A DNA stretch of 64,000 nucleotides from Gammaproteobacteria bacterium (GTDB taxonomy: Bacteria > Pseudomonadota > Gammaproteobacteria > Ga0077536). Every line of letters begins with the position of its first letter. Position 1 is the stretch's first letter. Location of the stretch: positions 65,250 to 129,249 of the forward strand of contig SHZJ01000003.1 in assembly GCA_009692365.1 (NCBI GenBank), written 5' to 3'. The position numbers and the translations under genes are program-made. The notes beneath the pieces were generated by a model, which ran no database searches, was not told where the DNA came from, and was given only the letters and a program-made list of their open reading frames with translations. Shown one piece after another: positions 3,307 to 49,528 of this stretch.

Positions 3307-3321
3307 GCCTTTAACACCGGC

Positions 3322-3663
3322 TTAGACCGGCGCGCTGGGCGCAGCCAAATCTGCCGGTAACTCGCCACGGCTCCAATCCCGGGTGACCTCACCCACCCGG
3401 ATCCGATACCACCGCAACACCGACTCACGACCACGCTGCATCGCGTGCAGATGGTCGGGGTCTTGCGCCCAGCGCGCGAGTGCGGCGGCGTCTCGCCAAT
3501 AGGAAATTTCGTACTGGCGTCCCGGATGGGTCAGGCTGGCGGACGGATAGGCGCCGAGAAAGCCGTCGATCAGCGCCAGTCGCGGCAGCAGCCGGTCGAG
3601 AATTTCCCGAAATTCGCCGGCCACGCCGGCGTTGAGTTCGTATTCAATGATCGCCATGAGCAT
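3322..3663 (-). CDS. small ABM (antibiotic biosynthesis monooxygenase)-like protein
   Basis: ORF 3322..3795; a plausible start is the Met at 3663 (MLMAIIEYELNAG...), giving ~113 aa with an ABM-fold-like pattern. Start and function are tentative. Confidence 0.45.
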   Translation of the reverse strand: MLMAIIEYELNAGVAGEFREILDRLLPRLALIDGFLGAYPSASLTHPGRQYEISYWRDAAALARWAQDPDHLHAMQRGRESVLRWYRIRVGEVTRDWSRGELPADLAAPSAPV

Positions 3664-9192: not shown

Positions 9193-9435
9193 ATTGCTAA
9201 CCCCGGGGGGTAGCTGGGCGCACCGCTGGCGAGGACCTAGCGCCGCCCGACCTCGCGACCACCGCGCGCACGCAGCGCGGTTTCGCCCCCACGCCCCCCG
9301 GCGCAAGACCCTTCGCGCTAAAGTCGGAATAGCCTCGCGCTGCCCGCGGAGTCGCCCGTGCTGCGGGGCGCTACTCATTGGCTGGCAGGCCGGCATGAGC
9401 CGCGAGCAAGGGCCGCCGCAAGCCGCTGCGGCGCC

Positions 9436-10266: not shown

Positions 10267-10622
10267 CGATACACTGCCGGTTGTCGTGAGAGGAGGCTGG
10301 CAAGGCGGCGCGCGGCGCGCAACTCAGCCACAGTTCAAGCACGCGCCAGCGCGGCGCACCGCCCGTGAAGCCGCAGAATATCGAAAGCTCGCGAGCGCCG
10401 ATACCCCGGGTGGTAACGCGCCAGCGGTGGCTGGCGGCAGTGGCAGCGCGGGCGAAAATGGCCGCCCGGGTGGGGGCCGCGGGACGCCGGGTGCCGCAGG
10501 TTCGTCGCCAGCGGGTGGCCAAACGCGGCTGGTCCGCGCAGCCAAGCGCGGCGCTTGGCAATCCGCCGAGCGCACGCTGGCCAGCTGGATTCGCACCCGC
10601 CATCCAGCAAGTCTGGCCCGCC

Positions 10623-10649
10623 GCCGCCACCTCGCCGCCACCTCGCCGA
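10623..10649. repeat. 11-bp tandem repeat (gccgccacctc x2.4) inside a ~650-bp gene-free GC-rich spacer
   Basis: Seen directly in sequence. Confidence 0.5.
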
Positions 10650-10920
10650 CAATCAGCCCGCGACTTGAGCTTGGGGCGCCGACGGCGCGGTGCAGCGGCC
10701 CTGTCAGCGACAGCATCGCCTGCTAACGAACAATCCCACGCCATCCTGTAGACTGATGCCCGCTGTGGACGCCGGCGCGCTGGCGCGCCCGCACCACCGT
10801 TCGCCAGCGCAGCGAGTGGCAGCCCACGGGTCCCGCCCAGTCGCCAAAACCCCGAGGCGCTAACGGCGCGCCGACCGACTGCGCCGCCCGGGCGCCGCGA
10901 CCCATTTCAGGAGTGAAACA

Positions 10921-14843: not shown

Positions 14844-15242
14844 CTAGCCCGGTAGGTAGGCGTTGACCTGAATCTCCACGACCTGCCCGGGAAAGCTCAG
14901 CGCCGCCACGCCTAAGCCAGTCCACGTGGGGGGCGGGTTTTGGCGCAGCACGTAGCGGTCTTTGATGACGATAAACGGCTCGAGTTGGGCGTGGATGTCG
15001 ACATGGTAGGTCGTCATCGCGTAGACGTGTTCGAAGCCCGCGCCCGCCTCGCTCAGCACCGCGCGCACGTTCTCGAAGGCCTGCACGATCTGCGCTTCTA
15101 AACCTTCGATTACCCGCATATTAGCGTCCCGCCCCACCTGCCCCGCACAATAAATCCACGGGCCAATGCGCACGGCAGGCGCGTAATGAAAACGCTCGAC
15201 GATGTGCCGCATGGTCGGCGGCACAATGGTGTGTCTGTCCAT
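14844..15242 (-). CDS. RidA/YjgF family reactive-intermediate deaminase
   Basis: 132 aa, YjgF/chorismate-mutase-like fold motifs. GGAG lies 13 nt upstream. Confidence 0.8.
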   Translation of the reverse strand: MDRHTIVPPTMRHIVERFHYAPAVRIGPWIYCAGQVGRDANMRVIEGLEAQIVQAFENVRAVLSEAGAGFEHVYAMTTYHVDIHAQLEPFIVIKDRYVLRQNPPPTWTGLGVAALSFPGQVVEIQVNAYLPG

Positions 15243-15619
15243 CGCTGATATCTCCGTTACTGGCTATGAGTTATTTCCTGGTGACCCGCCGGGCTAGCGG
15301 GGCGTTGCCGACCATCCATTCAGCGCCCGAGGATTTGCCGCTGGCGGCTGCCGCTAGGCGGGCGCGAGGCGGTGCGCGACAGCGCCCGCTCGGGCCCAGC
15401 CTACGCGCCAGACTGGGTGCAATTATGCGCGGTTTTAGGTGAGCGCGGCGGCGCCCAACGCGGTTTGCGACCCCTGCCTGAAAACCCGCGAGGCGGGCAG
15501 GAAATGCCGCCTCACAAGACCGTTTTTCGGGCGCCTTTTAGGCTCTCGCGGGCGGCGCTTCCCAGCGCAGCTAGAACGGTGCGAGACTCAGGCCATCTCA
15601 AGCGCAGAAGGATTTGACG

Positions 15620-16492
15620 ATGGATATTGGCTTTCTGATGATTGCGACCAACCAGTCAGGAAATCTGGCCCAGATCGCGCAGCGCGCCGAAGCAATCGGC
15701 TGCGACTCGCTGTGGATCCCCGAACACCCCATCATTCCGCGCGGCGACCATACGCCTTATCCCTTTGGCGGCCCCTTACCCGAACACTACGGCCGGTGGA
15801 GTGACCCCTTCATTGCGCTGATGGTGGCGGGCGCCGCGACCACGCGCATCAAACTCGCGACCGGCATCTGCCTGCTGCCCGAGCGGGAAACGCTGGTCAC
15901 CGCCAAAACCATTGCCAGCCTCGACTACTACACCGGCGGGCGGGTTTTGCTGGGGATCGGCGCGGGCTGGTTGCGGGAGGAAACCGAAATAATGGGCGCG
16001 AATTTTGGCACCCGCTGGCAACGGATGCGCGAGATGACGGAGGCCATGCGTAAACTTTGGACGGAAGACCATCCCAGTTATGCGGGTCGGCACGTCAACT
16101 TTCCGCCGGTACGCAGCGAGCCTAAGCCGCTGCAAGCCGGTGGCCCGCCGCTGCTGTTGGGTGGTCACGGCGAGAAAGCTTTGCGCCGAATCGCGCGCAG
16201 CTATGACGGCTGGTGCCCGTTGGCCAACGACCCCGTGGCCTTCGCGCGCGAGGCGGCCGAACTGAAAGAAATGTTCCGCGCGGCGGGTCGAGACCCCGCA
16301 ACGCTCAGCCTCAGCCCGTTCGTGGACCCGGAAAATGGCAAGCTGCCGGACAGCGCGCTGCGGGCTTTTCGCGCCGCCGGCGCGCAACGCTTGGTCATGT
16401 TCTACGCCACCCAAACGCAAGAACTCGCCGAAGGTGCGGCCCCGTATCTCGAGCAAATTGCCAACATCGTGACGCGCGCACGCGACCTCTAA
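15620..16492 (+). CDS. luciferase-like (LLM) flavin/F420-dependent oxidoreductase
   Basis: The ORF begins at a TTG at 15614; the ATG at 15620 (MDIGFLMIA...) has a GAAGGA RBS 8 nt upstream. LLM TIM-barrel motifs throughout. Confidence 0.75.
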   Translation: MDIGFLMIATNQSGNLAQIAQRAEAIGCDSLWIPEHPIIPRGDHTPYPFGGPLPEHYGRWSDPFIALMVAGAATTRIKLATGICLLPERETLVTAKTIASLDYYTGGRVLLGIGAGWLREETEIMGANFGTRWQRMREMTEAMRKLWTEDHPSYAGRHVNFPPVRSEPKPLQAGGPPLLLGGHGEKALRRIARSYDGWCPLANDPVAFAREAAELKEMFRAAGRDPATLSLSPFVDPENGKLPDSALRAFRAAGAQRLVMFYATQTQELAEGAAPYLEQIANIVTRARDL

Positions 16493-16543: not shown

Positions 16544-17011
16544 TTAGAGAAAACGCTCCAGCGTGCGCCGGCTGCGCGGGTCGAGCGCGGCCTGATCCTC
16601 CACCATGAATTGCAAACCGTGGTTGTCGGTGATGAGCAAGCGCCCCCCCGGCAGACGGCGGATGTCTTCCTCCGCTTTGAGCGTCAACTGCGTCGGTCCA
16701 CGGTCGGTTTGCAGCGTCCACACGCTGGGCGTCGAGAAGGTGGAGACTTTCTCGATGCCGAGAATGCGCGGCACAAATTCCCGCGGGGCCAGAGCCTCCA
16801 GCAGGAGTTGCTGGGTGGCGGCAGGCAGTTCGTCCAGCCGGTCGATGCTCACCAATTCTTGGCCTAGCGCCGATACCAGCGCCACAAACTCGTCGGGCGC
16901 GGTGAGCGGGAAAGCGCGCACCGGCAGCACGTCGTGATGGCAGGAGCCGTCCGCCAAGGTCAGGATCAGGCGCCCACGTGGCGAGCGTTCCAGCGTGAAT
17001 TGCGCGTTCAT
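16544..17011 (-). CDS. DUF1854-family protein (the cyanophycin-metabolism-associated family)
   Basis: 155 aa. Its ATG overlaps the stop of the upstream ABC gene as ATGA. I recall this family from cphA neighbourhoods; the recognition is by memory, not by search. Confidence 0.65.
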   Translation of the reverse strand: MNAQFTLERSPRGRLILTLADGSCHHDVLPVRAFPLTAPDEFVALVSALGQELVSIDRLDELPAATQQLLLEALAPREFVPRILGIEKVSTFSTPSVWTLQTDRGPTQLTLKAEEDIRRLPGGRLLITDNHGLQFMVEDQAALDPRSRRTLERFL

Positions 17012-19257
17012 GGATGGACTCCGGCCAGCTCACCTTCCTCGTGCTGGCGTAATTGCGCCTGATACAGCCGGGCGTAAATGCCCTCCCGCGCGAGCAAGTC
17101 GGTGTGGCTGCCGATTTCCGCCACGCGGCCACGGTCCAAGACCACTAGGCGGTCGGCCTTGCGCAACGTCGAGAGGCGGTGAGCCACGGCAATGGTCGTG
17201 CGGCCGCGGACTAAATTTTCTAGCGCACGCTGGATTTCTTTCTCGGTTTCGGTATCCACCGAAGAAGTCGCTTCGTCGAGAATGAGGATGCGCGGATTGA
17301 TTAACAACGCCCGCGCGATCGAAACGCGTTGGCGCTCACCACCCGACAGACCCTGCCCGCGTTCTCCCACCAGCGAATCGTAGCCCTGCGGCAGGCGCAG
17401 GATGAAATCGTGCGCGTGCGCTGCGCGCGCCGCGGCCACAATCTCGGCCCGGTTGGCGCCAGGCTTGCCGTAGGCGATGTTGTCCGCCACGGTGCCGAAA
17501 AAAAGAAAGGGTTCTTGGAGCACCAAACCGATATGCGAGCGGAAGGACGCCAGCGAGAGGTTTCGGATGTCGACCCCATCGAGCAGAATTTCTCCTGCGG
17601 CCACATCGTAGAAACGACACATCAGGTTAACCAGCGTGCTTTTGCCAGAGCCGCTTTGCCCCACCAGACCGATCATCTCGCCGGGCGCAATCTCCAGACT
17701 GATCCCCCGCAGCACTTGGCGGCTGCCATACCGAAAACCCACCTCACGCAACTCAATGCGGCCGCGCACGACCGGTATAGTCAGCGGCTGGCGGGGTTCG
17801 GGAACACTGGAGACATGGTCGAGAATATCGAAAATACGCTTCGCCGCAGCCGCCGCCTTTTGGGTATTGGAGACGATGCGGCTCATGGAATCGAGGCGCG
17901 CGTAGAAGCGCCCGATGTAAGCTAGAAAGGCCGTTAGAACGCCCACCGTGATCTCGTGCTGGGAAATTTGAAAAATCCCGAAACCCCACACCACTAACAG
18001 CCCCACCTCGGTCAGCAGGCTGACCGTCGGCGCGAACAGCGCCCAGGTTTTGTTGAGGCGGTCGTTGAGGGCCAGATTGTATTGGTTGGCGACCAGAAAC
18101 CGTTTGCTCTCGCGTTCTTCTTGGGCAAAGGCTTTGACGACGCGGATGCCGGGGATGGTATCCGACAGGACATTGGCGACCTCCGACCACACCCGCATCA
18201 GCTTCTCGAAACCGGTACGCAAACGATCGCGCACGGCATGGATCATCCAGCCGATAAACGGCAGCGGCAGCAGGGTAGTGAGCGCGAGCCAAGGGTCAAT
18301 CGAGAACAGAATGGCTGCCGTCATGAGTATCACCAACACGTCGGTCGCAAAATCGAGCGCATGCAACGACAGAAACACGCAGATGCGGTCGCTCTCCGAG
18401 CCCAATCGGCTGATGAGGTCCCCGGTGCGTTTCCCGCCGAAATATTCTAGCGATAAGCCCAGCAAATGATTAAACGTGGTCGTGCGTAAATCCGCTCCGA
18501 TCCGCTCCGATACGAGTGCTAGCAGATAGGTTCTAGCCCAACCCAGCACCCACGCAAATAGGGCTGCACACAACAACCCGCCGAGGTATAGAATCAGGCG
18601 CGATTGGTCGATCGGCGTGCCGTTCTGGAACGGAATAAGCACCTTGTCCATCAACGGCATGGTGAGATAGGGTGGAATCAAGGTCGCAAAAGTTGACCCC
18701 AGCGTGAACAGAAAACCAAAAAAGAGCTGGGTGCGGTAGGGTCTGGCGAAGCGCCAGAGCCGGAATAAGGTCCAGGTTGAGGGCGGGGCATCGAGCTCGC
18801 GGATACAGGCCGCGCACACGCCGGACGCCGGGTCCACGGGGCCACGGCATTCTGGGCACGGGCTGGGCGGCACGCCCGCTAGCCCACCATCCAAGCGCAG
18901 ACGAGCGAACTCGGCGACCACATGGGTGGCGCCTGTGCTGTGGGCCAAACTGAACCTCACGACGGCGAGCCTGGTGGCGCCCCGGGTAACTTCCACTAGC
19001 CCCACGCCCGCGTAGTCGGACTGGCGCAGGGCCAAGTCCGCCCCGATGGGCCACTCGTGTTCAGGCTCAGCGCCTGCCAGATGCAAAAGACGCTGCGTGG
19101 TAAGCACCAGTACGCCGGTGGCGTAGCGCAGGTCGGGAGTCAGGTCAGTTTCACAGCAAGCGCGCACCGATTCGTCGGGCGCCAAACGGGCTGCGATAAG
19201 CGCCCGCCAATCTGGCGGCAACAGGTTTAGCGAAGGAGCATGCAAATTTTCGATCAT
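17008..19257 (-). CDS. fused ABC transporter (N-terminal Cys4 zinc-ribbon-like cytoplasmic domain, 6-TM permease, C-terminal ATPase), cyanophycin-locus associated
   Basis: 749 aa. Walker A GQSGSGKST, signature LSGGERQRVSIARAL, Walker B ILILDEATS. The N-terminal ~170 aa contain CPECRG...CAAC. Confidence 0.85.
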   Translation of the reverse strand: MIENLHAPSLNLLPPDWRALIAARLAPDESVRACCETDLTPDLRYATGVLVLTTQRLLHLAGAEPEHEWPIGADLALRQSDYAGVGLVEVTRGATRLAVVRFSLAHSTGATHVVAEFARLRLDGGLAGVPPSPCPECRGPVDPASGVCAACIRELDAPPSTWTLFRLWRFARPYRTQLFFGFLFTLGSTFATLIPPYLTMPLMDKVLIPFQNGTPIDQSRLILYLGGLLCAALFAWVLGWARTYLLALVSERIGADLRTTTFNHLLGLSLEYFGGKRTGDLISRLGSESDRICVFLSLHALDFATDVLVILMTAAILFSIDPWLALTTLLPLPFIGWMIHAVRDRLRTGFEKLMRVWSEVANVLSDTIPGIRVVKAFAQEERESKRFLVANQYNLALNDRLNKTWALFAPTVSLLTEVGLLVVWGFGIFQISQHEITVGVLTAFLAYIGRFYARLDSMSRIVSNTQKAAAAAKRIFDILDHVSSVPEPRQPLTIPVVRGRIELREVGFRYGSRQVLRGISLEIAPGEMIGLVGQSGSGKSTLVNLMCRFYDVAAGEILLDGVDIRNLSLASFRSHIGLVLQEPFLFFGTVADNIAYGKPGANRAEIVAAARAAHAHDFILRLPQGYDSLVGERGQGLSGGERQRVSIARALLINPRILILDEATSSVDTETEKEIQRALENLVRGRTTIAVAHRLSTLRKADRLVVLDRGRVAEIGSHTDLLAREGIYARLYQAQLRQHEEGELAGVHP

Positions 19258-19349
19258 GGCCTATCTTATCGTGTGACCGGCGTGGGCGTAGCGTTCTGGC
19301 CGCAAGGCCGAGGCTGGCCGTTAATTTACCAGCGCGGAACCCCTACGTA

Positions 19350-21491
19350 ATGACCCGCCACGACCTCAAAATTCTCGAACTGGTCATCCTGCGTGGCCCC
19401 AACCGCTGGTCCTATAAACCTGCGCTCGAGGCACTGGTGGACATCGGCACGCTGGAAGAGTGTCCCTCTAACAGCTTGCCCGGCTTCGTGGCGCGGCTCC
19501 TTGACTGGTTGCCGGGATTGCACCAGCACGAATGCAGCTACGAGGTGCCCGGCGGCTTCGTGCGGCGCCTGCAAGAAGGCACCTGGGTGGGACATATCCT
19601 CGAGCACGTTACGCTGGAACTCCAGTCACGCATTGGCCACCCGGCGGGCTTTGGCCGTGCCCGCGGCGCGGGGGCCACGGGCGTCTATCACGTGGTGGTG
19701 CGCATTACCCAAGAAGACCTCACAAGAGCCTGCCTGCTCAAGGCCCGCGAGCTCATTTTAGCCGCCATCCACGCCGAACCTTTTGACGTCGACGGCGCTC
19801 TGCGCGGGCTGCGGAAGCTGGCGCAGAGCAAAGCACTGGGGCCGAGCACCGCCTGCATTGTAGAGGCCGCGCGCACGGCCCGGATCCCCGTGGCGCCGCT
19901 AGCACACGGCAACCTGGTGCTGCTAGGACAAAGTGCTCGCCAGCGCCGCATCTGGACTGCAGAAACAGACAGCACCTCGGCCATCGCCGAAAGCATCGCG
20001 AAAGACAAAGATCTGGCAAAAGAACTGCTGGGCTACTGCGGCCTGCCGGTTCCCGAGGGCCAGATCGTGCGAACGCTGGCCGAGGCGTGGCGTGCCGCCG
20101 AAGAACTGGGCCTGCCGGTCGTGCTAAAACCGGCCGAAGGCAGTCGGGGCGAGGGGGTGTCGCTGGCGCTGCTCAGCCAGCCGGAAATTGCCGCCGCCTT
20201 CGAACGGGCGCAGCAGGTGCAATCGGCCGTGATCATTGAACGCTACGTCGAAGGCATCGAGCATCGGCTACTCGTGGTAGGCGAGCGCGTGGTGGCGGTC
20301 ACCCGGGCGATAGAATTCACCGTGACCGGCAACGGCCACGACGCGGTTGGCGCGCTGGTCACCCGCACGTTGGGTGGTCGGGAAAGCGATCGCTGGGCGG
20401 CCGAAGCCCTGCTCGACTACCCCACCGTGCGCCGCGCGCTGAACTCGCAAACACTGGACGCCAACAGCGTACCGGCTGCGGGGCGCGTGGTCGGCTTGCA
20501 CCGCCACGCCAAACTGGGGGAAGACGTCCTAGCGCACGTCCATCCCGACACGCTGGCGCTGGCGCTGCTGGCAGCCCGCATCGTGGGACTCGACATCGCC
20601 GGCATCGATATCGTTGCCCGTGACATTGGACAGCCGTTGGCGGCCCAACAGGGCGCGATTATCGAAGTCAACGCAGGCCCCTCGCTGCCCACCCATCTGC
20701 GGCAGAACGGCGGCACCGGCAATACGGCGGGGGACGCCGTGGTGCGGCACCTCTTCCCGGCCGGCGAAGATGGCCGCATCCCGCTGGTCGGGATCACGGG
20801 CTGCGCGGATACCACCAGCGTTGCGCAATTGCTGGGCTATCTGCTCTACCTCCATGGCCGCTCGGTCGGGGTTGCCTGCGCCGCCGGGATCTTTCTCGGA
20901 CAGCGCTGCATCCAGCAAGGCGATGGCGCTAACTGGTCGGCCGGACAGCGGGTGTTGATCAATCGCACGGTCGATGCGGCCGTCATCGAGACCTCGCCCA
21001 CCAGCTTGCTGCGGGAAGGTTTACCTTACGACCGCTGTCTCGTGGGGGTCTTGACCTCCATCGAAGCGCCCACCGAGGTGATCCCCTTTGGGGTGCAGGA
21101 CGCCGGCCAGATGGCCCACGTGCTGCGCACCCAGATCGACGTCGTCCTAGCCCACGGGGTGGCGGTGTTGAATGCCGATGACGCGGCCGTGCTCGCACTG
21201 GCACCGTATTCGGAGGGTGAAGTGTTGTTGTATAGCCGCAGCCAAGCGACTAGCGCTATTCAGGCGGCGCTGCTCAAAGGCGCGCGCGCGGTTTATGTCG
21301 ATGGCGATGCGCTGGTGTTCGCACAGCACAACAACGCCGAGCGCCGCCTGCTCGCACCCTGCGTTAACGCCGCAGACTGCCTGCCGGCCGCCGCCGCCGC
21401 GTGGGCGCTAGGCATCCCTTTCGATCTCATCATCGGCGCCATCGTGGGATACCCGGTAGCGTTGCTCGACCAGAGGACAGCCACATTTTGA
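19350..21491 (+). CDS. cphA: cyanophycin synthetase paralog 1 (CphA-like, 713 aa, degenerate Mur-ligase P-loop)
   Basis: N-terminus LKILELVILRGPNRWSYKPALEALVDIG...HECSYEVPGGFVRRLQEGTWVGHILEHV is the CphA signature, followed by an ATP-grasp core. The position of the Mur-ligase GTNGKTT reads GITGCADTTS instead. Confidence 0.85.
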   Translation: MTRHDLKILELVILRGPNRWSYKPALEALVDIGTLEECPSNSLPGFVARLLDWLPGLHQHECSYEVPGGFVRRLQEGTWVGHILEHVTLELQSRIGHPAGFGRARGAGATGVYHVVVRITQEDLTRACLLKARELILAAIHAEPFDVDGALRGLRKLAQSKALGPSTACIVEAARTARIPVAPLAHGNLVLLGQSARQRRIWTAETDSTSAIAESIAKDKDLAKELLGYCGLPVPEGQIVRTLAEAWRAAEELGLPVVLKPAEGSRGEGVSLALLSQPEIAAAFERAQQVQSAVIIERYVEGIEHRLLVVGERVVAVTRAIEFTVTGNGHDAVGALVTRTLGGRESDRWAAEALLDYPTVRRALNSQTLDANSVPAAGRVVGLHRHAKLGEDVLAHVHPDTLALALLAARIVGLDIAGIDIVARDIGQPLAAQQGAIIEVNAGPSLPTHLRQNGGTGNTAGDAVVRHLFPAGEDGRIPLVGITGCADTTSVAQLLGYLLYLHGRSVGVACAAGIFLGQRCIQQGDGANWSAGQRVLINRTVDAAVIETSPTSLLREGLPYDRCLVGVLTSIEAPTEVIPFGVQDAGQMAHVLRTQIDVVLAHGVAVLNADDAAVLALAPYSEGEVLLYSRSQATSAIQAALLKGARAVYVDGDALVFAQHNNAERRLLAPCVNAADCLPAAAAAWALGIPFDLIIGAIVGYPVALLDQRTATF

Positions 21492-21536
21492 CCGCCATCT
21501 GCGCCCCATCGCCGGCCGAAAAAGAGCTTAACGCCG

Positions 21537-24122
21537 ATGCAGGTTGAGCGTGTCCGGGCGCTCCGCGGCCCCAATCTGTGGACCCGCCGCTGCGCTATCC
21601 AAGCGCTCGTTACCTGCGAGGAAGCCGAACGCGACCTCCGCCAAATGGGCGGCTTCGTCGAGCGCCTGCGGGCGCTTTATCCGCAACTGCCCCCACTCGC
21701 GCCGGCGGCGGCCGGCAGCACCCTCAGCCTTGCCAACGTGCTGGAAGTCGCGGCCTTGGGTCTGCAGACTCTGCTCGGCTGCCCGGTGTCCTTCGCGCAC
21801 ACGGCGGCGGCACCGGATGTTGGGGTCTCGCAGGTGGTGGTGGAATATGTCGAAGAAGCCATAGGGCTGGGCGCCTTTGCGCTCGCGCAGCGGCTGATCG
21901 AGGCCGCACTTGACGCGCTCGCTTTCGATCTGGACCCCGAACTCAACGCGCTGGGTGAACTCTACGAAACGGTGCGCTTAGGCCCCTCCACGGGTGCCAT
22001 CGTGACGGCGGCCGTGGAGCGCGGCATCCCATTTCGCCGTCTCACCAGCGGCAGTCTGGTGCAATTTGGCTGGGGTAGCCGGCAACGGCGGATTCAGGCC
22101 GCGGAAATGGATCGCACCAGCGCCATCGCCCAGTCCATCGCCCAGGATAAACAACTCACTAAGGAACTACTGCGCGCCGCGGGCGTGCCGGTCCCCGAGG
22201 GGCAAACCGTGCTGGACGCCGCGCAAGCCTGGTCCGTCGCCTGCGCCTTGGGCTTACCCGTCGTCGTGAAGCCACAGGACGGCAATCAAGGTCGCGGCGT
22301 GACGGTGAACATTGAAACCCGCGAACATCTGGAACAGGCATTCCAGGCGGCGGCTGAAGCGGGCACGCAGGTGCTGGTGGAACGCTACATCGCGGGCAGC
22401 GATTACCGCCTGCTGGTGATAGGCGACAAACTCATCGCCGCGGCGCGGCGCGAACCGCCGCAGGTCATTGGCGATGGCGTGCGCAGCGTGCAGGAACTGG
22501 TGGAGGAGGTGAACCGCGACCCACGGCGCGGCGAAGGCCACGCCACTTCGCTGACCCGTATTCGGTTGGACGACATCGCGCGGGCGTGTCTGCAGTTGCA
22601 AAACTGTAGCCCCGAGACCATTCCCGCACTCGGCCAACGGGTGATCATGCGCAACAACGCCAATCTTTCCACCGGCGGCACCGCGACCGATGTCACCGAT
22701 GAAGTCCACCCGGAACTCGCCGCGCGCGCGGTAACCGCCGCCCAAATGGTGGGTCTGGAAATTTGCGGTGTAGACATCGTGTGTCAATCGGTGCGCTTAC
22801 CGCTAGAAGAACAGGCCGGCGGGGTGGTGGAGGTGAACGCCGCACCCGGACTGCGGATGCACCTGGCGCCATCTTTTGGCACGGGACGGCGCGTTGGCGA
22901 GGCCATCGTGGCCGAGATGTTTGCACCGGGCGACGATGCGCGCATTCCGGTCGTGGCGGTCACCGGGACCAACGGCAAAACGACCACCGTGCGCCTGATC
23001 GCCCACCTGCTAGCCAGGTCCGGCCTGCGGGTGGGCATGACCACGACCGACGGCGTGTTCGTGGATGGCCGGCAAATGGACGCCGGCGACTGCAGCGGGC
23101 CGCGCAGCGCGCGCAGTGTGTTGATGCATCCCGAGGTCGATGCGGCGGTGTTTGAGACCGCCCGTGGCGGCATTCTGCGCGCGGGGCTGGCCTTCGACCG
23201 CTGTCGGGTGGCAGTGGTCACCAATATCGGTCGCGGCGACCATCTAGGCCTGAACTTCATCACCACGGTCGAAGATTTAGCGGTGCTCAAGCGCGTCATC
23301 GTCCAAAACGTCGCGCCCACCGGACACGCCGTCTTAAACGCTGACGACCCTATCACGGCGCGGCTGGGCGCGGCCTGCCCCGGCAGCGTCATTTTCTTCT
23401 CCCGTGACCACCTTAATCCCATTATCCTCACCCACCGCGCGCAAGGTCGGCCGATCGTTTTGGCCGCAAAGGACGCCATTAGCTGCGCCATTGACGGCGA
23501 GGAAATCTGCCGCCTAGCGCTGGCTGCAATACCGCTGACGATGGGCGGGCGCATCGGCTTTCAGATTGCGAACGTCATGGCCGCGATCGGAGCGGTGTGG
23601 GCGCTGGGCCTCGAGTGGTCCGTGATCAAAGACGGGCTGGCGACGTTTATCTCGGATGCTGCCAGCACCCCGGGGCGCTTCAACTTGATGGCTTATCGCG
23701 GCGCTACCGTCATCGCCGACTATGGCCACAACCCCGATGCCATGACGGCCTTGGTCGACGCCGTCGTCGCGCTGCCAGCCGCCCGTCGCAGCGTGGTGAT
23801 CAGCGGTGCGGGCGACCGCCGCGACGAGGACATTACCAATCAGACGCGCATACTCGGCGAGGTGTTCGACAGCGTTGTGCTCTATCAAGATGCCTGTCAG
23901 CGCGGACGTGCCGATGGCGAAGTGCTCGCGCTCTTGCGCACCGGACTGGCCAACGCCAGCCGCACGCGCGAGATAACCGAAATCCGGGGCGAATTTATCG
24001 CCATCGACGCCGCACTGGCCGCTTTACGACCCGGCGATTTGTGCCTGATCCTCATCGACCAAGTGGACGAGGCGCTGGCGCATTTAGCGCAACGGGTCGC
24101 CGAGGCTGCCACCGTCTCTTAA
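21537..24122 (+). CDS. cphA: cyanophycin synthetase paralog 2 (CphA, 861 aa, intact Mur-ligase domain)
   Basis: CphA N-domain and ATP-grasp, then an intact VAVTGTNGKTTTVRLIAHLL P-loop and Mur-ligase C-terminal domain. Confidence 0.85.
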   Translation: MQVERVRALRGPNLWTRRCAIQALVTCEEAERDLRQMGGFVERLRALYPQLPPLAPAAAGSTLSLANVLEVAALGLQTLLGCPVSFAHTAAAPDVGVSQVVVEYVEEAIGLGAFALAQRLIEAALDALAFDLDPELNALGELYETVRLGPSTGAIVTAAVERGIPFRRLTSGSLVQFGWGSRQRRIQAAEMDRTSAIAQSIAQDKQLTKELLRAAGVPVPEGQTVLDAAQAWSVACALGLPVVVKPQDGNQGRGVTVNIETREHLEQAFQAAAEAGTQVLVERYIAGSDYRLLVIGDKLIAAARREPPQVIGDGVRSVQELVEEVNRDPRRGEGHATSLTRIRLDDIARACLQLQNCSPETIPALGQRVIMRNNANLSTGGTATDVTDEVHPELAARAVTAAQMVGLEICGVDIVCQSVRLPLEEQAGGVVEVNAAPGLRMHLAPSFGTGRRVGEAIVAEMFAPGDDARIPVVAVTGTNGKTTTVRLIAHLLARSGLRVGMTTTDGVFVDGRQMDAGDCSGPRSARSVLMHPEVDAAVFETARGGILRAGLAFDRCRVAVVTNIGRGDHLGLNFITTVEDLAVLKRVIVQNVAPTGHAVLNADDPITARLGAACPGSVIFFSRDHLNPIILTHRAQGRPIVLAAKDAISCAIDGEEICRLALAAIPLTMGGRIGFQIANVMAAIGAVWALGLEWSVIKDGLATFISDAASTPGRFNLMAYRGATVIADYGHNPDAMTALVDAVVALPAARRSVVISGAGDRRDEDITNQTRILGEVFDSVVLYQDACQRGRADGEVLALLRTGLANASRTREITEIRGEFIAIDAALAALRPGDLCLILIDQVDEALAHLAQRVAEAATVS

Positions 24123-24162: not shown

Positions 24163-24960
24163 ATGAGCGTTTTGCAATACGAGGTGCTAGACCACACCGC
24201 CGTCATCACCCTCGACCGGCCACAGGCGCGCAACGCGCTCAACCCGGAATTGGCGGTGAAACTGGCTGAGGCCTGGCTACGGGTGCGCGAGGATGACCAA
24301 GTGCGTGTCGCTATTCTCACCGGCACGGGCAGCGCTTTTTGCGCGGGGGCCGATTTGGGACAACTCATCCCACTGTATTCCGGCGCCCGCCAACCCGCCA
24401 ACGAATGGGATGAACGCGTCATGGCCGACCGCACCATCACGCAGCGCGCGCTGCTGCGGAATTTCGATCCTGAAAAACCGATCATTGCGGCCATCAATGG
24501 TCACGCTATCGCGGGGGGGATGGAACTCGTGCAGGGCACGGATTTGCGCGTGAGCGTAGCCGAAGCCAAATTTGGGGTTCAGGAAGTCAAGTGGGCTATC
24601 TTCCCGGCCGGCGGTTCCACCGTGCGCTTACCCGCCCAAATGCCTTATGCAAAGGCCATGGAACTCCTGCTGACCGGCGACCTCATCACCGCCGAAGCAG
24701 CCTTAGCGCTGGGTTTTCTCAACTATATTGAGGCAGATCCGCTCGCCAAAGCCCACGCCCTGGCGCGCCGGATTGCCGCTAATGGGCCGCTTGCGGTGAG
24801 GGCGATTCGCCGCTCCGTGAAGGCCTGTCTCGGCCAACCCGAGCACGCCGCGATGGCGCTGGAATTGGCGATTGCGGCGCCGGTATTCCAGACCGAGGAT
24901 GCCCAAGAAGGACCGCGGGCCTTTATGGAGAAACGCGCGCCAAGCTACCGCGGTCGCTAA
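24163..24960 (+). CDS. enoyl-CoA hydratase/isomerase (crotonase fold)
   Basis: 265 aa, ITLDRPQARNALN...AILTGTGSAFCAGADL...GHAIAGGMELV. GAGGAA RBS. Confidence 0.8.
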   Translation: MSVLQYEVLDHTAVITLDRPQARNALNPELAVKLAEAWLRVREDDQVRVAILTGTGSAFCAGADLGQLIPLYSGARQPANEWDERVMADRTITQRALLRNFDPEKPIIAAINGHAIAGGMELVQGTDLRVSVAEAKFGVQEVKWAIFPAGGSTVRLPAQMPYAKAMELLLTGDLITAEAALALGFLNYIEADPLAKAHALARRIAANGPLAVRAIRRSVKACLGQPEHAAMALELAIAAPVFQTEDAQEGPRAFMEKRAPSYRGR

Positions 24961-24979: not shown

Positions 24980-27900
24980 TCAGGCCGTACCAGCTTGGGC
25001 TAGCGCCGCCACCGCGCTTAAGAGCACTGTTGGGCTAACCGGCTTGCGAAAAAAGTGCTCAATGCCGGCTTCTTGCGCCGTTTTTACGTTGACGGTGGGG
25101 CTATAGCCCGAGCAGAGCACAATGGGGAGACGGGGGTAAGAGCGCCGTACTTCGTGGGCAAGTTCTAGCCCCGTCATCCGGGGCATGGTTTGATCGGTCA
25201 GTAACACACAGTAATCCGCGGGGCGTGCTTGCAATAGCGCCAGCGCGTCGACACCGTCCGTGGCGCTGTCTACCGCATAACCTTGGCGCCGGAACAACTC
25301 CACCAAATACTTAAGCACCAGTGGTTCGTCGTCCACCACGAGAATGCGCCGTCCGCCGCTGCCGTGCAGCGTGGGGGGCCGACCGGTCTGCTCAGCGAAC
25401 ACTGGCGATTCGGCGCTCAGCGCCGGCGGGAACAGCAGACGAACGCGTGTGCCCGTGCCAGGTGTAGAGGTCACCACGAGGTGTCCAGAACCCCGATGCA
25501 TAATCCCGTGGACCACCGACAAACCCATCCCGGTCCCTTTACCGGGGCCCTTAGTCGTGAAAAACGGGTCGAAAATCTGGGGCAGCACGCTGGGGGCAAT
25601 ACCCTCCCCGTCGTCTGTCACATCAATCACCAGATAGCTTGCGTCGATCGGACTGTGGCAGCCCGAGCACACCGCCTGAACACGCTGGAGCGGCAATAAA
25701 CTGACCAGAATTAGCCCATGCCCGGGCAAGGCGTCGCGGGCGTTGAGGACCAAATTCACCAGCAGTTGGTGCAAATCGGAGGGGTCTAGCAAAGCGACGC
25801 CGCCGCCGGCGGTCTTATTTTCCACCCGCAGTTGGATGCTAGAGGGAATAATGGTCGCCAGCATGCACAACACTTCGTCGAGCAGGGGTGCCGGGTCGAC
25901 GGGATGTAAATCCTCGCGGGGTGCGTTGCGACTGAATTCCAGCATTTTTACCACCAGTTCACGCGCCCGCTCGCCGGCGGCCATCACGGCGTCCAAGTAC
26001 TCATCAACGCGCTCGCTGTGGTCTGGCCAAAGCGAGCGCGCCAGCGAGGTATAACCCAAAATGCTGGCTAGCACATTGTTAAAATCGTGGGCGATACCCC
26101 CCGTTAACTGCCCCAACGCATCCATTCTTTGCGCCTGCAGGAGCTGCCGCTGCAATTGCGTGTGTTCGGCCGCCGCGTTTATCTCGTCGGTGATGTCATC
26201 GACCGTACCCACAAAGCCCCAGAGCACGCCATCCGAGCGCACCGGCCGCGCGCGCGCCCGCACTCTGATCGTCCGTAAGTCGGGTCTGATTAGGGAAAAC
26301 TCCTCTGAGAAAGAGCCGTTTGCCTCCGCTACACACCGCGACCACTGCAACTGCACACGGACACGGTCGTCCGCGGCCACGGACACGCTCCAATCCCAGG
26401 TTAAATCCCAGCTGTTTGACCATCCCAGCATGTCGCGCAGTAAGGGGTTCACGAACAACAGCTCGCCCAGCGGGTTAGTCAGAAACATGCCCACCGGGGA
26501 ATTCTCAACCACCGCACGCAAGCGCTCCTCGCTGGCCTGTTGCGCGGCGTCGGCTTTTTTGCTGGACGTAATATCGTGCAACACGCCGAACACGTGGAGC
26601 GGCCGGCCGAGCTCGTCGCGGGCCCGGACGGCACCCGAACTTAACATCCAGACCCAACTGCCGTCGGCGGCGAGCAGGCGTAATTCCGTCACGAAGTGAG
26701 CCGTTTCACCGGCGCAATGCGCTGCCAGCCGGGCCTCGACGCGCGGCAGGTCGTCCGGATGAATAAATTTGGCCCAGTCGCCGCGTTCCAGGATGGGGGG
26801 CTCGCGCGAGTCGCCCACCAGCCCCAGCACCATCTGATTGACAATCGTGCGTCCGGATACCAGTTCGAAATCCCACAGCCCAAGATGCGCTGAGGAAACC
26901 ACCATCCGGAGCCGCTCCTCCTCGCGCTGAAGACGCTCTTCGATGGCGCGTTTTTCGCTGATATCAACTTGGATCCCGACCATGCGCAGAGCCCGGCCCT
27001 GGGCGCTGCGCTCGGTCACCCGTCCCCGACTCATAATCGTTTTCCGGCTGCCGTCCGCCGCTTGTACCTTCAACTCTACCTGCAACAGACCGTCGCCGCC
27101 TTCACGGAGCACGCGACATATCGCTTGCGCATAACTGGGATACTCATCGTTGCTTAGCCAATTTGCCATCGAGCCGGCCGGGAATCTCAGAGGAGGAGGT
27201 ACTTCGCCGAGTGTTCGTTCCATCCACTGGTTGGTCCGGAGCTCGTCGATGGAGATATCCCAATCCCAGACGCCCAGCCCGGCTGCCTCGACGATCGACT
27301 GCAGGCGCTGTTGGCTGAATTGTGCGCTGGCCTCAGCGGCACGCAATTGCGTGACATCGATATGGGTGCCGACCAACCGCACTGCGCGACCATCGGCGGC
27401 GCGTTCCACCACTTGGCCGCAGACCAGTTGCCAGCGCCAGTCATCGTGTCCACGAAAGCGTGCTTCCACGCTGAAAATGGCCGTCGTGCCCTTGAGGTGT
27501 GCGGTCCCGGCAGCAAGGAAACGGGAGTAGTCGTCCGGGTGAATCAGCTTCAACCACGCCTGAACGTTTTGGACCTCACCCGGCGAGACGGCCAGATAAT
27601 CTAACGCCGGCGATTGGATCTCGGTATGGTCGGCCACCAGATCCCATTCCCAAAAACCGAGGTTACCCGCCCGAATGACCATCTGAATGCGTGCACGCTC
27701 GTGCTCGAGGGCGAGTTCGATGTGTTTTCGTTGCGTGATGTCTAGCGCCACGCCGGCCATGCAGAGTGCTTGACCAGCAGCGTCGCGCTGCGAGATCTGG
27801 CCCCGACTGTGGAGCCACAGCCACGTTCCATCCTGCCGGCGCAAGCGGTATTCACCCACGTATTCCGCGCTTCGGCCCCTGCATAGTGCGGTGACCGCGG

Positions 27901-29773: not shown

Positions 29774-30876
29774 GTATTGGGCTCACGCAACGGCGAGGGC
29801 AGGTTAGTCTGCTCGGCCGCGCGCTGAATGTCCTCAAACAGGGCGAGGCCCAAGTCTTCGCCGATTTGCTCACGCACCATGAAAGCCTCGGGTTCGCGCT
29901 CTATCAGGTTTAGGAACACCTCGACCAGTGCCGGGTCACGCCAGCCTCGGGCGGTTTCCTCACGCAAGATGCGCAAGACCTCGGAGGTGGGCAGCGCCGG
30001 CTTATAAGGACGTGCGAAGGTGAGCGCATCGTAGATATCGCAAATCTGAAACACCCGGGCTAGCAACGAAATATCCTCCCCCTGCAAGCCGTCGGGATAA
30101 CCACTACCGTCCCAGCGCTCGTGATGGGCGCGGATAATCTGCACCGTGAGGCGAAAACTCTTGAGGCCGCCACACAGGCGTTCTCCGATCACCGGATGGG
30201 TCTTCATGACGCCCCATTCAACGGGCGTGAAGCTGCCGGGTTTCAGTAAGATGGCCTCGGGGATACCCAGCTTGCCGATGTCGTGGAGTACCCCACCCCG
30301 CCGCAGCGCAAGCAGTTCCTCGCCGCTCAGCCCCAGCGCTTGCCCGAAACGCACCGAGTACTGCGCCAGACGCGTGCAGTGGTCGCCCGTGTTGCCGTCT
30401 TTCGCTTCCACCATTCGCGCCAGCGCGAACAGCACGGACTCGGCGCTTTCGAGCTGGTCGGTGAGCCGCTTGCGATAGATGGCGCCATCGACGCGCGCTG
30501 AGAATTCTTGGGCGCTGTAGGGCTTATGAATGAAGTCGGACGCCCCGGCGCGCAGCGCGGCAGACAGCACACTGGTGCTGCCGCCGCCGCCCGTCACCAT
30601 CACGATGGGCAGCAACAGGTTGCCCATTTCTTGCCGGATGGTGCGGCACACCGCCTCCCCGTCTAAGCCTGGCAGATGCTTGTCCAGCACCATGACGTCG
30701 AAGTCCTGTTCGCCGAGCAAGGCGAGCGCCTGCTGTCCGTCTGACGCCTCCGACACGTCGTACTTCGGCGCCTGAAGGATGGCTCGACACAGCGCCCGTT
30801 GATCGGGCTCGTCGTCCACAACCAGCACCTTGAACGGGGACTGGTTCTGGCTCAGGTAGTCGGTTACGTTATTCAT
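29770..30876 (-). CDS. response regulator with HD-GYP domain (RpfG-type c-di-GMP phosphodiesterase)
   Basis: Receiver VLVVDDEPDQ...DVMVLDKHLPGLDG, then HD-GYP motifs HDIGKLGIP...HHERWDGSGYP. 4-bp overlap with the upstream kinase gene. Confidence 0.85.
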   Translation of the reverse strand: MNNVTDYLSQNQSPFKVLVVDDEPDQRALCRAILQAPKYDVSEASDGQQALALLGEQDFDVMVLDKHLPGLDGEAVCRTIRQEMGNLLLPIVMVTGGGGSTSVLSAALRAGASDFIHKPYSAQEFSARVDGAIYRKRLTDQLESAESVLFALARMVEAKDGNTGDHCTRLAQYSVRFGQALGLSGEELLALRRGGVLHDIGKLGIPEAILLKPGSFTPVEWGVMKTHPVIGERLCGGLKSFRLTVQIIRAHHERWDGSGYPDGLQGEDISLLARVFQICDIYDALTFARPYKPALPTSEVLRILREETARGWRDPALVEVFLNLIEREPEAFMVREQIGEDLGLALFEDIQRAAEQTNLPSPLREPNT

Positions 30877-45527: not shown

Positions 45528-45534
45528 GAGTGCG

Positions 45535-46014: not shown

Positions 46015-46016
46015 TC

Positions 46017-49527: not shown

Positions 49528-49528
49528 C

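Follow-up and report, generated by a model that had tools for sequence, protein, structure and literature searches.

Two cyanophycin synthetase genes that lie side by side, facing the genes of an ABC half-transporter and a DUF1854 protein, raise the question of how work is divided between the two synthetases and what a transporter does beside them. We addressed this in a window of 64,000 nucleotides (the whole stretch of DNA that was analysed) from an uncultured freshwater-type metagenome-assembled genome. A first-pass annotation, made from the letters alone, had described the open reading frames, the strings 'GITGCADTTS' in a 713-aa protein (here CphA') and 'VTGTNGKTTTV' in an 861-aa protein (here CphA), a 92-bp gap, and an overlap of the ABC stop with the DUF1854 start as ATGA. 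All of these features are present where it placed them. The four-gene cluster itself is already known; what is new here is that the active sites are divided reciprocally between the two synthetase copies.

The locus is an ordinary copy of a known module of Burkholderiales-type proteobacteria, cphA'-cphA / ABC-DUF1854. Clusters in Acidovorax sp. 3H11, Cupriavidus basilensis 4G11 and C. necator H16 have the same four genes, from the same families and in the same layout, with no cyanophycinase (Price et al. 2016; Adames et al. 2013, as cited there; the 'Group 1' cluster of PMC10687191), and nothing material sets the window copy apart from them. All four genes show cofitness in two species and have motility and stress mutant phenotypes in common, and export of the polymer has been proposed (Price et al. 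2016, bioRxiv 10.1101/072470). Cyanophycin was not seen in wild-type C. necator, which bears both synthetase homologs. In Accumulibacter, both cphA copies are evenly expressed, and the cluster is without cphB. Both transporter genes are covered by curated NCBI models labelled "cyanophycin metabolism-associated" (NF052233/NF052234). The first-pass description of the ABC/DUF1854 pair as uncharacterised therefore stands as far as biochemistry is concerned, but not for its association with cyanophycin genes, which is curated, nor for its cofitness and the export hypothesis, which are published.

Conservation was assessed in two sets of related loci. The genome set consists of 53 loci found through DUF1854; the metagenome set consists of 80 loci found through cphA' and ascertained partly via the HxxEH pattern itself, and only for the 47 genome cphA' orthologs, which were reached by way of DUF1854, is a count of that motif free of bias. 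The module layout is kept in every genome locus long enough to be assessed, and the ABC gene is present in 68/68 metagenome loci with more than 1 kb upstream of cphA'. Because 62 of these gene pairs are divergent and 6 co-directional, the linkage of cphA' to the ABC gene outlasts rearrangement. Synteny holds in both directions across 133 related loci wherever it can be assessed, and the conserved placement of ABC/DUF1854 beside cphA, on which the first-pass annotation had made its reading depend, is thus found throughout. The flanks contain no fifth conserved gene (the commonest other family occurs in 26/134 loci), no conserved membrane-fusion or outer-membrane partner and no conserved cyanophycinase. 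An HlyD-family gene (527-2149) lies 14 kb off, outside the conserved flank. When about 50 ORFs from the whole window were scanned with Pfam, neither a Peptidase_S51 cyanophycinase nor an isoaspartyl dipeptidase turned up, in line with the earlier statement that the window has no cyanophycinase. In the 92-bp intergenic region, promoter- and terminator-like signals are not above shuffled expectation.

Table 1. Coordinates of the module and of the motifs discussed in the text (positions in the window).
Feature	Position	Strand	Basis or remark
DUF1854 protein gene, 155 aa	16544-17011	-	ORF list; putative cytoplasmic ABC partner
ABC half-transporter gene, 749 aa	17008-19257	-	N-terminal accessory domain, 6-TM exporter domain and NBD
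CxxC-x10-CxxC putative zinc ribbon before TM1, aa 134-151	18805-18858	-	sequence ('CPECRG...CAAC')
PH-like domain of ABC protein, aa ~25-125	18883-19185	-	AF2 model and Foldseek
ABC/cphA' divergent intergenic gap, 92 bp	19258-19349	.	ORF coordinates
cphA' (short paralog), 713 aa	19350-21491	+	predicted ligase-deficient; N-domain zinc endopeptidase site intact
Cx19HxxEH motif of cphA' (C62 ... H82 ILE H86)	19533-19607	+	sequence; motif per PMC9262961
Remodelled G-omega 'large loop' of cphA' (HRHAKLGEDV replaces RATANLSTGG)	20499-20528	+	alignment
Degenerate M-domain P-loop of cphA' (GCADTTS), aa 484-490	20799-20819	+	sequence and alignment
cphA (long paralog), 861 aa	21537-24122	+	complete three-domain synthetase without N-domain zinc site
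Intact M-domain P-loop of cphA (GTNGKTT), aa 477-483	22965-22985	+	sequence; motif in 102/102 long orthologs

The long paralog (deposited as MSQ66903.1) scores above both curated synthetase cut-offs (961.9 bits against TIGR02068, cut-off 850; 1187.9 bits against NF010623, cut-off 877), and Pfam assigns it Cyanophycin_syn, ATP-grasp, Mur_ligase_M and Mur_ligase_C. Its PDB matches are TeCphA1 (7wac, E 2.3e-185) and SuCphA1 (7lg5, E 7.6e-179), with which it shares the N-G-M architecture and the ATP, Mg, Asp and M-domain catalytic residues. We aligned the residue tables of both paralogs against these two enzymes. The G-domain residues K220, K261, R309, R323, N394, D431, E450, G456 and R458 are kept in 42/42 long orthologs, as are the M-domain GTNGKTT, E558, the DH dyad and the lid residues R731 and H748; the NLSTGG loop is present in 102/102. 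As far as aligned residues go, CphA holds all that would be needed for both Asp addition (by the ATP-grasp G domain) and Arg addition (by the Mur-ligase-like M domain). Unlike SuCphA1 and TeCphA1, it lacks the Cx19HxxEH motif (0/42 long cphA by regex search): 'NVLEV' replaces HxxEH, and the C59/F67/R70 loop is deleted. The first-pass annotation had assigned the CphA N-terminal signature to both paralogs, which is right for the short one but applies only loosely to the long one, which Cyanophycin_syn matches weakly (35.7 bits, confined to residues 63-124) and without the catalytic motif. CphA also differs in its G domain, with Q at H267 (39/42 long orthologs) and S at E215 (S or A among orthologs); both positions have been functionally tested, and both differ from all four structurally characterised CphA1s. 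CphA may accordingly be a poor or altered synthetase, and its polymer is perhaps not standard cyanophycin.

In the short paralog (MSQ66902.1) the pattern is inverted. It falls under the curated synthetase cut-offs (785.8 against 877; 596.5 against 850), and Pfam finds Cyanophycin_syn and ATP-grasp but neither Mur_ligase_M nor Mur_ligase_C, which the long paralog alone has. The equivalents of H57, C59, F67, R70, H79, E82, H83 and E87, which make up the zinc site and its second shell, are all conserved in 47/47 true cphA' orthologs (one deviant row, from locus L027, is an extraction artefact, and a regex check gives 47/47). The ATP/Mg ligands K220, K261, D431, E450 and N452 are retained in all true orthologs together with R309. 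The aspartate pocket, in contrast, is remodelled in every one of them: R323 has become G or A, R458 has become L or P, and the STGG that follows N394 is gone (47/47 each), while a motif search for NLSTGG found it in 0/123 cphA'. The replacements are consistent (G323 in 40/47, L458 in 40/47, a uniform 5-residue loop deletion), and N394 is retained in 39/47 and H267 in 35/47 orthologs. Compared with the known clusters, the window's cphA' belongs to a sub-clade whose pocket has decayed further (H267R, N394K, G456S, R458P, R323A).

The M domain of CphA' is degenerate as well. The K499 equivalent is Lys in merely 5/47 orthologs, TE stands in the place of the DH dyad, and the lid is absent. This P-loop change is not a sequence artefact, since an independent Logan assembly contributes another 713-aa protein to the 90%-identity cluster of CphA', and the Lys is missing in 42/47 orthologs from other genomes. 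The comparison with characterised CphA that the first-pass annotation had proposed thus finds the M-domain ATP site degenerate in the short paralog and intact in the long one, and its view of sub-functionalised paralogs, with arginine added by the long one only, agrees with an M site that all 42 long orthologs (42/42) keep whole and that the short ones have lost or let degenerate. It was unsupported or incomplete, however, in three respects. The Arg step is lost but is not all that is lost (R323, R458 and the STGG loop are gone too). Loss of the P-loop does not define cphA': GxxGKT is retained in some orthologs, and the M domain is fully intact in five metagenome loci. The remodelled G pocket is universal. 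Lastly, it overlooked that the short paralog alone keeps the zinc site. Conservation along cphA' is high in the N domain (0.61) and the G core (0.67-0.69) and relaxed in G-omega (0.51) and the M core (0.52), and residues that contact the polymer in SuCphA1 are partly lost (E90 to N/S/T, S603 to R). Overall, CphA' is the faster-evolving copy (43-50% identity to the window protein, against 60-67% for CphA).

A truncated, apparently inactive M domain without P-loop or lid is also found in CphA2 (7ta5, 8fxh), and we considered CphA' as a CphA2. Only this feature fits, and the assignment was rejected. CphA2 is without the N-domain motif and retains the G large loop (N393, S395), on which its activity depends, whereas CphA' has Cx19HxxEH and has lost the large loop; by PDB match CphA' lies far nearer CphA1 (E 1e-108) than CphA2 (E 1e-36).

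At the residue level, then, CphA keeps both ligase sites and has lost the N-domain zinc endopeptidase site, and CphA' is its mirror image. The latter shares the zinc site with SuCphA1 and TeCphA1 and retains the G-domain ATP/Mg ligands and core, but has lost the residues of its ligase pockets (aspartate pocket, P-loop lysine, DH dyad and the entire lid). In CphA1, the Cx19HxxEH site is an endo-cyanophycinase that cuts polymer into primers, with a low catalytic rate in SuCphA1 (PMC9262961). The aspartate binders of TeCphA1 are N394, R323 and R458, as backed by mutagenesis, and the G core forms the CphA1 dimer interface (PMC9427784). A precedent for such a split exists in a mixture of enzymes: when supplied in trans, SuCphA1 with a dead G and/or M domain, or its isolated N domain, makes the primer-dependent TmCphA1 primer-independent (PMC9262961). 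The division of labour suggested by the residues of cphA and cphA' is the same. The difference is that the TmCphA1/SuCphA1 system is a laboratory mixture from two species, while cphA and cphA' are adjacent paralogs in one operon, known by sequence.

The ABC protein, encoded divergently next to cphA', scores 1284.9 bits against NF052233 (cut-off 880). Pfam places ABC_membrane at 178-449 and ABC_tran at 516-665, the closest solved relatives are ABCB1, TM287/288, Sav1866 and MsbA, and the NBD motifs are canonical (Walker A GQSGSGKST, signature LSGGERQR, Walker B ILILDEATS, H-loop VAHRL). We infer a catalytically competent exporter-type half-transporter. In the model, its N-terminus begins with a PH-like domain, after which comes a 4-Cys putative zinc ribbon. 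Pfam gave no match to the PH-like region, but the AF2 model (pLDDT 87.6) has seven strands (31-103) and then a long helix (104-122), as in the best Foldseek match in the PDB, the bacterial DUF1696 PH domain 3dcx (E 2.9e-3, prob 1.0, TMt 0.63). Identity to 3dcx is only about 9%, and in the present protein the domain forms part of an ABC exporter; further leading matches are the Lam6 PH-like domain, talin F3 and PTB folds. Sequence change in the domain is far more rapid than in the TMD and NBD. All of the nearest database homologs (120/120) carry the four ribbon Cys, as do 40/51 orthologs from genome loci and 52/57 from metagenome loci; 11/51 genome orthologs lack them. Over the ribbon the AF2 model is less confident (means over blocks of 10 residues, 68-80). 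Models and homolog counts therefore agree with the initial description of the protein as an exporter-type half-transporter whose N-terminal domain is cytoplasmic and bears a conserved 4-Cys ribbon.

The DUF1854 protein matches Pfam PF08909 (1.4e-45, 154.8 bits, cut-off 26.8) and NF052234, 'cyanophycin metabolism-associated DUF1854 family protein' (205 bits, cut-off 150). Its AF2 model (pLDDT 90.6) consists of two beta-rich halves, each closed by a helix, and no fold relative was found in the PDB by sequence or by Foldseek. In one locus (L048) DUF1854 is fused in frame to the ABC C-terminus, which places it on the cytoplasmic side beside the NBD. It is most simply read as a translationally coupled, cytoplasmic partner of the transporter.

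Accessory domains of this kind have parallels. C39 and C39-like N-domains recognise cargo on the cytoplasmic side of PCAT/HlyB-type exporters, and in the Wzt O-antigen transporter a C-terminal carbohydrate-binding domain does so. The present transporter resembles these systems in being an exporter-type ABC protein with an extra cytoplasmic domain, encoded beside a polymer- or peptide-making system. It is unlike them in its PH-like N-domain with a Cys ribbon, its separate DUF1854 subunit and its lack of conserved envelope partners. An identity as a type I secretion or PCAT system was rejected: scores to the HlyB-type and bacteriocin-exporter models are under their cut-offs, the N-domain is PH-like and not C39, and there is no conserved fifth gene.

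The model that we favour, with a confidence slightly better than even, is that CphA polymerises, CphA' cuts the chains and the product leaves through the transporter; export and the identity of the product are the inferred parts. The two synthetases would form a split enzyme in which CphA polymerises and, on its own, depends on a primer, while CphA' would cleave chains to provide primers and/or set fragment size, probably in a hetero-oligomer with CphA through the well-conserved G core. The accessory parts of the transporter would all be cytoplasmic (the PH-like domain and 4-Cys ribbon before TM1, and the coupled DUF1854). They would most likely recognise the product, either polymer or oligomers cut by CphA', and pass it to the transporter, which would move it out of the cytoplasm. 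Export would explain the absent cyanophycinase, the lack of stored cyanophycin in the tested strain and the mutant phenotypes common to all four genes. Several observations count against this model. The changes at H267 and E215 make CphA a possibly poor or altered synthetase, the N-domain peptidase of SuCphA1 is slow, and cphA' has lost several of the residues that contact the polymer in SuCphA1. A type-IV ABC homodimer without a conserved envelope partner reaches the periplasm at most, and some exporter-fold ABC proteins are importers. Moreover, the consistent G323 and L458, with H267 and R309 in most cphA', look more like a new ligase specificity than like a dead site.

This last observation leads to an alternative that we consider unlikely, in which CphA' is a re-specified ligase whose ATP-grasp pocket activates the polymer C-terminus and joins it to something other than aspartate (a capping residue or amine, an acceptor or another oligomer), the modified end being recognised for export by the PH-like domain and DUF1854. 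O-antigen ABC transporters, where end caps are recognised, offer an analogy. The G-pocket replacements are consistent and not random, and the loss of two arginines would make the pocket larger and less cationic. The five loci that pair an intact M domain with the same remodelled G pocket imply that the G change came earlier and looks selected. Yet there is no candidate nucleophile and no extra conserved gene in the flanks, and the pocket decay in the window's clade speaks against CphA' being an essential ligase in this organism.

Ordinary intracellular nitrogen storage as cyanophycin granules, with ABC/DUF1854 otherwise employed (efflux or uptake of arginine, beta-Asp-Arg dipeptide or oligomers, or granule tethering), is assumed in several papers, but seems to us a doubtful account of this module. 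CphA does keep the Asp-, ATP- and M-domain residues of bona fide CphA1, apart from H267Q and E215S/A, and import by an exporter-fold protein would suit such a role. Against it stand the wild-type C. necator result, the absence of a cyanophycinase from the window and conserved flanks, and the shared motility and stress phenotypes; the strict two-way linkage to a transporter is also hard to square with a purely cytoplasmic store.

Less probable still is that CphA' is a catalytically inert pseudoenzyme acting as a scaffold or regulator of CphA. Its faster evolution, the stepwise decay of its M domain and its scores under the curated cut-offs would fit, but eight zinc-site and second-shell residues are kept in 47/47 orthologs while being eroded in every long CphA, and the N domain is among its best-conserved parts. 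Finally, the heteromeric synthetase raised in the first-pass annotation, if taken to mean that each subunit can still lengthen the aspartate backbone while the long one alone adds arginine, is very unlikely: the ATP/Mg ligands, R309 and the dimer-forming G core of CphA' speak for it, but the three aspartate binders shown by mutagenesis are largely gone, and H267, N394 and G456 are also altered in the window's own clade.

The split-enzyme model with export can be taken further, with tentative confidence that stays well short of even: the module would be a secretion system for a cyanophycin-like product and not a nitrogen store, in which CphA polymerises, CphA', as a dedicated zinc endopeptidase and possibly also a re-specified ATP-grasp ligase, trims or caps the chains into a form fit for export, and the ABC exporter recognises this form and delivers it to the envelope. 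If true, this would give cyanophycin chemistry a non-storage role, the three-site CphA1 machine would be divided in nature between two proteins, and the PH-like domain, ribbon and DUF1854 would be substrate-recognition accessories of a kind new among ABC exporters. From the active-site split follows a hypothesis on the working of the cluster that can be put to the test.

The four genes at the centre of this locus form two divergent pairs separated by a gap of 92 bp. In one pair, the stop codon of the ABC transporter gene and the start codon of the DUF1854 gene share an ATGA overlap. The other pair encodes two synthetases, deposited as MSQ66902.1 and MSQ66903.1 and each named 'cyanophycin synthetase', which we call CphA' (the short paralog) and CphA (the long one). 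When both paralogs were scanned against Pfam, Mur_ligase_M and Mur_ligase_C were matched by the long protein only. The open reading frames are as the first-pass annotation gave them, and the motifs it had read (GITGCADTTS, VTGTNGKTTTV and CPECRG...CAAC) are present in the translations. Overall, its observation is confirmed and its interpretation is right in part.

Features of the locus and of the surrounding window
Feature	Position	Strand	Description
ORF	2894-3325	+	143 aa, no Pfam match
ORF	5643-6752	-	369 aa, no Pfam match
ORF	9068-10726	+	552 aa, no Pfam match
TPR protein gene	11984-14812		942 aa
RidA-family gene	14844-15242		
Monooxygenase gene	15614-16492	+	luciferase-like
DUF1854 gene	16544-17011	-	155 aa, Pfam DUF1854
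ABC transporter gene	17008-19257	-	749 aa, Pfam ABC_membrane + ABC_tran
Short cphA (cphA')	19350-21491	+	713 aa, Pfam Cyanophycin_syn + ATP-grasp
Long cphA (cphA)	21537-24122	+	861 aa, Pfam Cyanophycin_syn + ATP-grasp + Mur_ligase_M + Mur_ligase_C
Enoyl-CoA hydratase gene	24163-24960		265 aa
Kinase/regulator pair	24980-30876	-	hybrid histidine kinase (1597 aa, five or more PAS domains); 4-bp overlap with HD_5 (HD-GYP-like) response regulator
Monooxygenase gene	31955-33025	+	luciferase-like
ORF	40368-41918	-	516 aa, no Pfam match
Mla-type system	43861-46709	+	ABC ATPase, MlaE permease, MlaC
Glucan synthesis genes	47053-51076	-	MdoH-like family-2 glycosyltransferase (824 aa), then MdoG (515 aa, 1.6e-182)
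Peptidase_C13 gene	58302-59747	-	481 aa, legumain-like domain

The locus itself is ordinary: it belongs to a curated four-gene module and had already been annotated. The transporter genes belong to two NCBIfam equivalog models: the ABC protein scores 1284.9 bits against NF052233 ('cyanophycin metabolism-associated ABC transporter'; cut-off 880), and the DUF1854 protein 205 bits against NF052234 ('cyanophycin metabolism-associated DUF1854 family protein'; cut-off 150). Price et al. (bioRxiv 10.1101/072470) reported cofitness of all four genes, noted that many beta-proteobacteria lack cphB, cited work in which the C. necator enzymes form no cyanophycin, and proposed the export of an amino-acid polymer. 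A review describes wild-type C. necator as devoid of cyanophycin although two homologs are present. A metagenomic study from 2023 found the same cluster (two cphA and an ABC transporter, no cphB) in activated-sludge taxa, with even expression of both cphA copies in Accumulibacter. Elsewhere in the literature searched, DUF1854 is not mentioned.

Searching species-representative genomes with DUF1854 returned 53 loci, in Comamonas, Castellaniella, Giesbergeria, Simplicispira, Limnohabitans, Herbaspirillum, Rhodocyclaceae and several MAGs; every sufficiently long contig has the layout cphA <- cphA' <- / -> ABC -> DUF1854. A reverse search from the alignment of cphA' orthologs returned 80 metagenome loci. 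The ABC gene is present in all 68 of those with more than 1 kb upstream, and so is DUF1854 where the contig extends far enough. The pairs are divergent in 62 of the 68 and co-directional (ABC-DUF1854-cphA'-cphA) in six (L060, L064, L070, L099, L100 and L113), so the linkage outlasts rearrangement. Loss of this synteny had been named beforehand as grounds for refuting the first reading; since it is kept in both search directions, the association between the transporter pair and cphA is real. When flanking ORFs were clustered, the module genes alone recurred (in 120, 109 and 88 of 134 loci), with no other family in more than 26. The frequent flanking families that we checked (5'-nucleotidase, PilC and CreA) are unrelated to cyanophycin. 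No conserved fifth gene emerged from the flanks of the 134 loci, be it a membrane-fusion protein, an outer-membrane protein or a peptidase.

Some 50 ORFs spread over the 64 kb were scanned with Pfam, which revealed neither a cyanophycinase nor an isoaspartyl dipeptidase, in line with the earlier remark that the window holds no cyanophycinase; the cyanophycinase-sized ORF directly downstream of cphA is an enoyl-CoA hydratase by Pfam. Promoter and terminator scans of the locus gave nothing exceeding shuffled expectation, and anti-phage defence models matched it through generic ABC ATPase similarity only. The DUF1854 gene is flanked by one of two luciferase-like monooxygenase genes, a RidA-family gene and a TPR protein gene, neighbours that recur in independent assemblies of this organism and not in other genera. 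The kinase/regulator pair, encoded on the opposite strand, immediately follows the cphA operon. Further away, the window encodes the synthesis of osmoregulated periplasmic glucans, a lipid-trafficking ABC system of the Mla type and a protein with a Peptidase_C13 domain, which is uncommon in bacteria. Four well-supported ORFs with high GC3 have no Pfam match at E <= 1e-5.

To compare the synthetases, the TeCphA1 and SuCphA1 sequences were rebuilt from PDB alignments and aligned with 42 long and 47 true short orthologs from the genome loci; residue numbers follow these references, and residue roles follow Miyakawa et al. (PMC9427784) and Sharon et al. (PMC9262961). The short set comprised 48 rows minus L027, whose apparent 'full-length cphA'' arose as an artefact of extraction (the gene is frameshifted and its best HSP lies on cphA). 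At the level of residues, the novel point is that the three active sites of CphA1 (in the N, G and M domains) are reciprocally partitioned between the two paralogs. All 42 long proteins keep the G-domain residues K220, K261, R309, R323, N394, S396, G398, G399, D431, E450, G456 and R458, together with the M-domain P-loop GTNGKTT, E558, F692, R731, H748 and the DH dyad. Their N-domain zinc site is lost: P stands in place of C59, the loop with F67 and R70 is missing, H83 becomes V, A, I or S, and the Cx19HxxEH motif occurs in 0 of 42. Among the CphA1 criteria tested, the long protein departs at H267 alone. This residue is Q in 39 of the 42 orthologs, and E215 is replaced by S or A. Mutation of H267 or E215 impairs activity (PMC9427784), and H and E occupy these positions in all four structurally characterised CphA1. 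Q267 and S/A215 may bear on the reported inability of the C. necator enzymes to produce cyanophycin.

CphA' is the mirror image. Its zinc-site residues H57, C59, F67, R70, H79, E82, H83 and E87 are retained in 47 of 47 true genome orthologs, the only set unbiased for this motif (the metagenome set was partly ascertained by an HxxEH-containing pattern), and so are the ATP/Mg ligands K220, K261, R309, D431, E450 and N452 (47/47). The G pocket is altered: R323 becomes G or A, R458 becomes L or P, and the large loop has lost its STGG segment (NLSTGG in 0 of 123 short vs 102 of 102 long orthologs). The lid is absent, the M-domain lysine is kept in 5 of 47 orthologs, and the DH dyad survives as D in three and H in one of the 47. 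Conservation is 0.61 in the N domain, 0.67-0.69 in the G core, 0.51 in G-omega and 0.52 in the M core. The degenerate P-loop was correctly described by the first-pass annotation, but none of the other losses is less universal: GxxGKT persists in a few orthologs. Nor is it a sequence artefact, because the orthologs share this degeneracy; independent assemblies also contain a 713-aa protein from the same 90%-identity cluster as the short protein, and an identical DUF1854 protein.

The short protein falls below the CphA1 cut-offs and departs from the ligase-site criteria. It is not a CphA2 either: in CphA2 the N motif is missing and the G loop intact, whereas CphA' has the N motif and a partly deleted G loop, and its sequence is nearer to CphA1. 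Five metagenome loci (L062, L065, L066, L067 and L135; e.g. L062:5232-~7850) encode a full-length CphA' of 871-874 aa, in which both the M domain (GTNGKT, E558, DH dyad, F692, D745/H748/N749) and the N zinc site are intact and the G pocket is remodelled in the same way (R323G, STGG deletion, R458L). These forms are probably evolutionary intermediates. An intact M domain beside a remodelled G pocket argues that the G-pocket change came first, and stepwise decay of the M domain likely followed. In most CphA', G323 and L458 recur consistently in a pocket that still has H267 and R309, which may reflect a new ligase specificity and not a dead site; the sub-clade of the window shows further decay of this pocket (H267R, N394K, G456S, R458P).

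A biochemical precedent comes from Sharon et al. (PMC9262961). The N-domain site of SuCphA1 acts as a zinc endo-cyanophycinase and generates primers, synthetases without this site (e.g. TmCphA1) are primer-dependent, and SuCphA1 with a dead G and/or M domain, or its isolated N domain, supplied in trans with TmCphA1 leads to primer-independent synthesis. Natural two-gene pairs are nowhere mentioned in that text. At residue level, the cphA'/cphA pair has the same division of labour as this mixture. From the reciprocal split and the in-trans precedent, we infer that CphA would be the sole polymerase and that CphA' would cut the chains. The G core, which forms the dimer interface in CphA1 (PMC9427784), is conserved, and this would be compatible with a CphA-CphA' hetero-oligomer.

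In the ABC protein the Walker A, signature, Walker B and H-loop motifs are all canonical, and its closest solved structures are ABCB-type exporters, TM287/288, Sav1866 and MsbA. For the first ~170 residues there is neither a Pfam match nor a sequence relative in the PDB. An AlphaFold model of this region built with 30 homologs (pLDDT 87.6) consists of seven strands and, after them, a long helix. PH-like folds lead its Foldseek matches with modest E-values (the top one being the bacterial DUF1696 PH domain 3dcx), and the domain is PH-like as modelled. Between it and TM1 sits CxxC-x10-CxxC, a plausible zinc ribbon by sequence, present in 120 of 120 nearest homologs, 40 of 51 genome orthologs and 52 of 57 metagenome orthologs. 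Its absence from 11 of 51 genome orthologs (about one fifth) makes the ribbon common yet dispensable. In the Castellaniella-type ABC genes (L009, L010, L012-L014, L017, L024 and L025), the N-terminal match ends near residue 121. A representative-library search with the N-domain profile gave 1217 clusters; the matches listed lie mostly in short proteins and start near residue 1, so that these are probably contig-end fragments, and no other architectures came to light among them.

DUF1854 was modelled as two beta-rich halves (pLDDT 90.6), with no PDB sequence relative and no credible PDB match for the model; homology to the ABC N-terminal domain was rejected (hhalign probability 1.6%). The co-evolution check suggested at the outset gave a mirror-tree partial correlation of 0.29 between the PH-like domain and DUF1854 (65 dereplicated loci), not above those of the fast pairs DUF1854-cphA' M domain (0.49) and PH-cphA' M domain (0.38). 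In Alcaligenaceae bacterium CAII-56 (L048:7649-10421), ABC and DUF1854 form one 924-aa in-frame ORF in which DUF1854 is joined C-terminally to the NBD; this is either a genuine fusion or reflects a lost stop codon. Exporter-type ABC proteins have a cytoplasmic N-terminus. Given this topology, the lack of a signal sequence in DUF1854, its translational coupling to the ABC gene and the single frame in CAII-56, the accessory parts all face the cytoplasm, where the synthetases work.

Some exporters bear cytoplasmic domains for cargo recognition. By analogy, the PH-like/ribbon domain and DUF1854 most likely recognise a product for export. Type I secretion and PCAT exporters are ruled out, as there is no C39 domain and there are no conserved partners. 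Product export is a reasonable hypothesis because of the linkage, the cofitness, the lack of a cyanophycinase in the window and the conserved flanks, and the lack of a stored polymer in C. necator.

The role of the cphA/cphA' pair in beta-proteobacteria has been a standing question since such pairs were first noticed: they come without cyanophycinase, and the single strain tested yields no detectable cyanophycin. The split of sites, together with the published in-trans precedent, opens the mechanism to direct experimental test, and the pair might guide engineering toward primer-independent cyanophycin production. If export is true, DUF1854 and the PH-like/zinc-ribbon domain would represent a new cargo-recognition class for ABC exporters, and cyanophycin chemistry would have an envelope or extracellular role.
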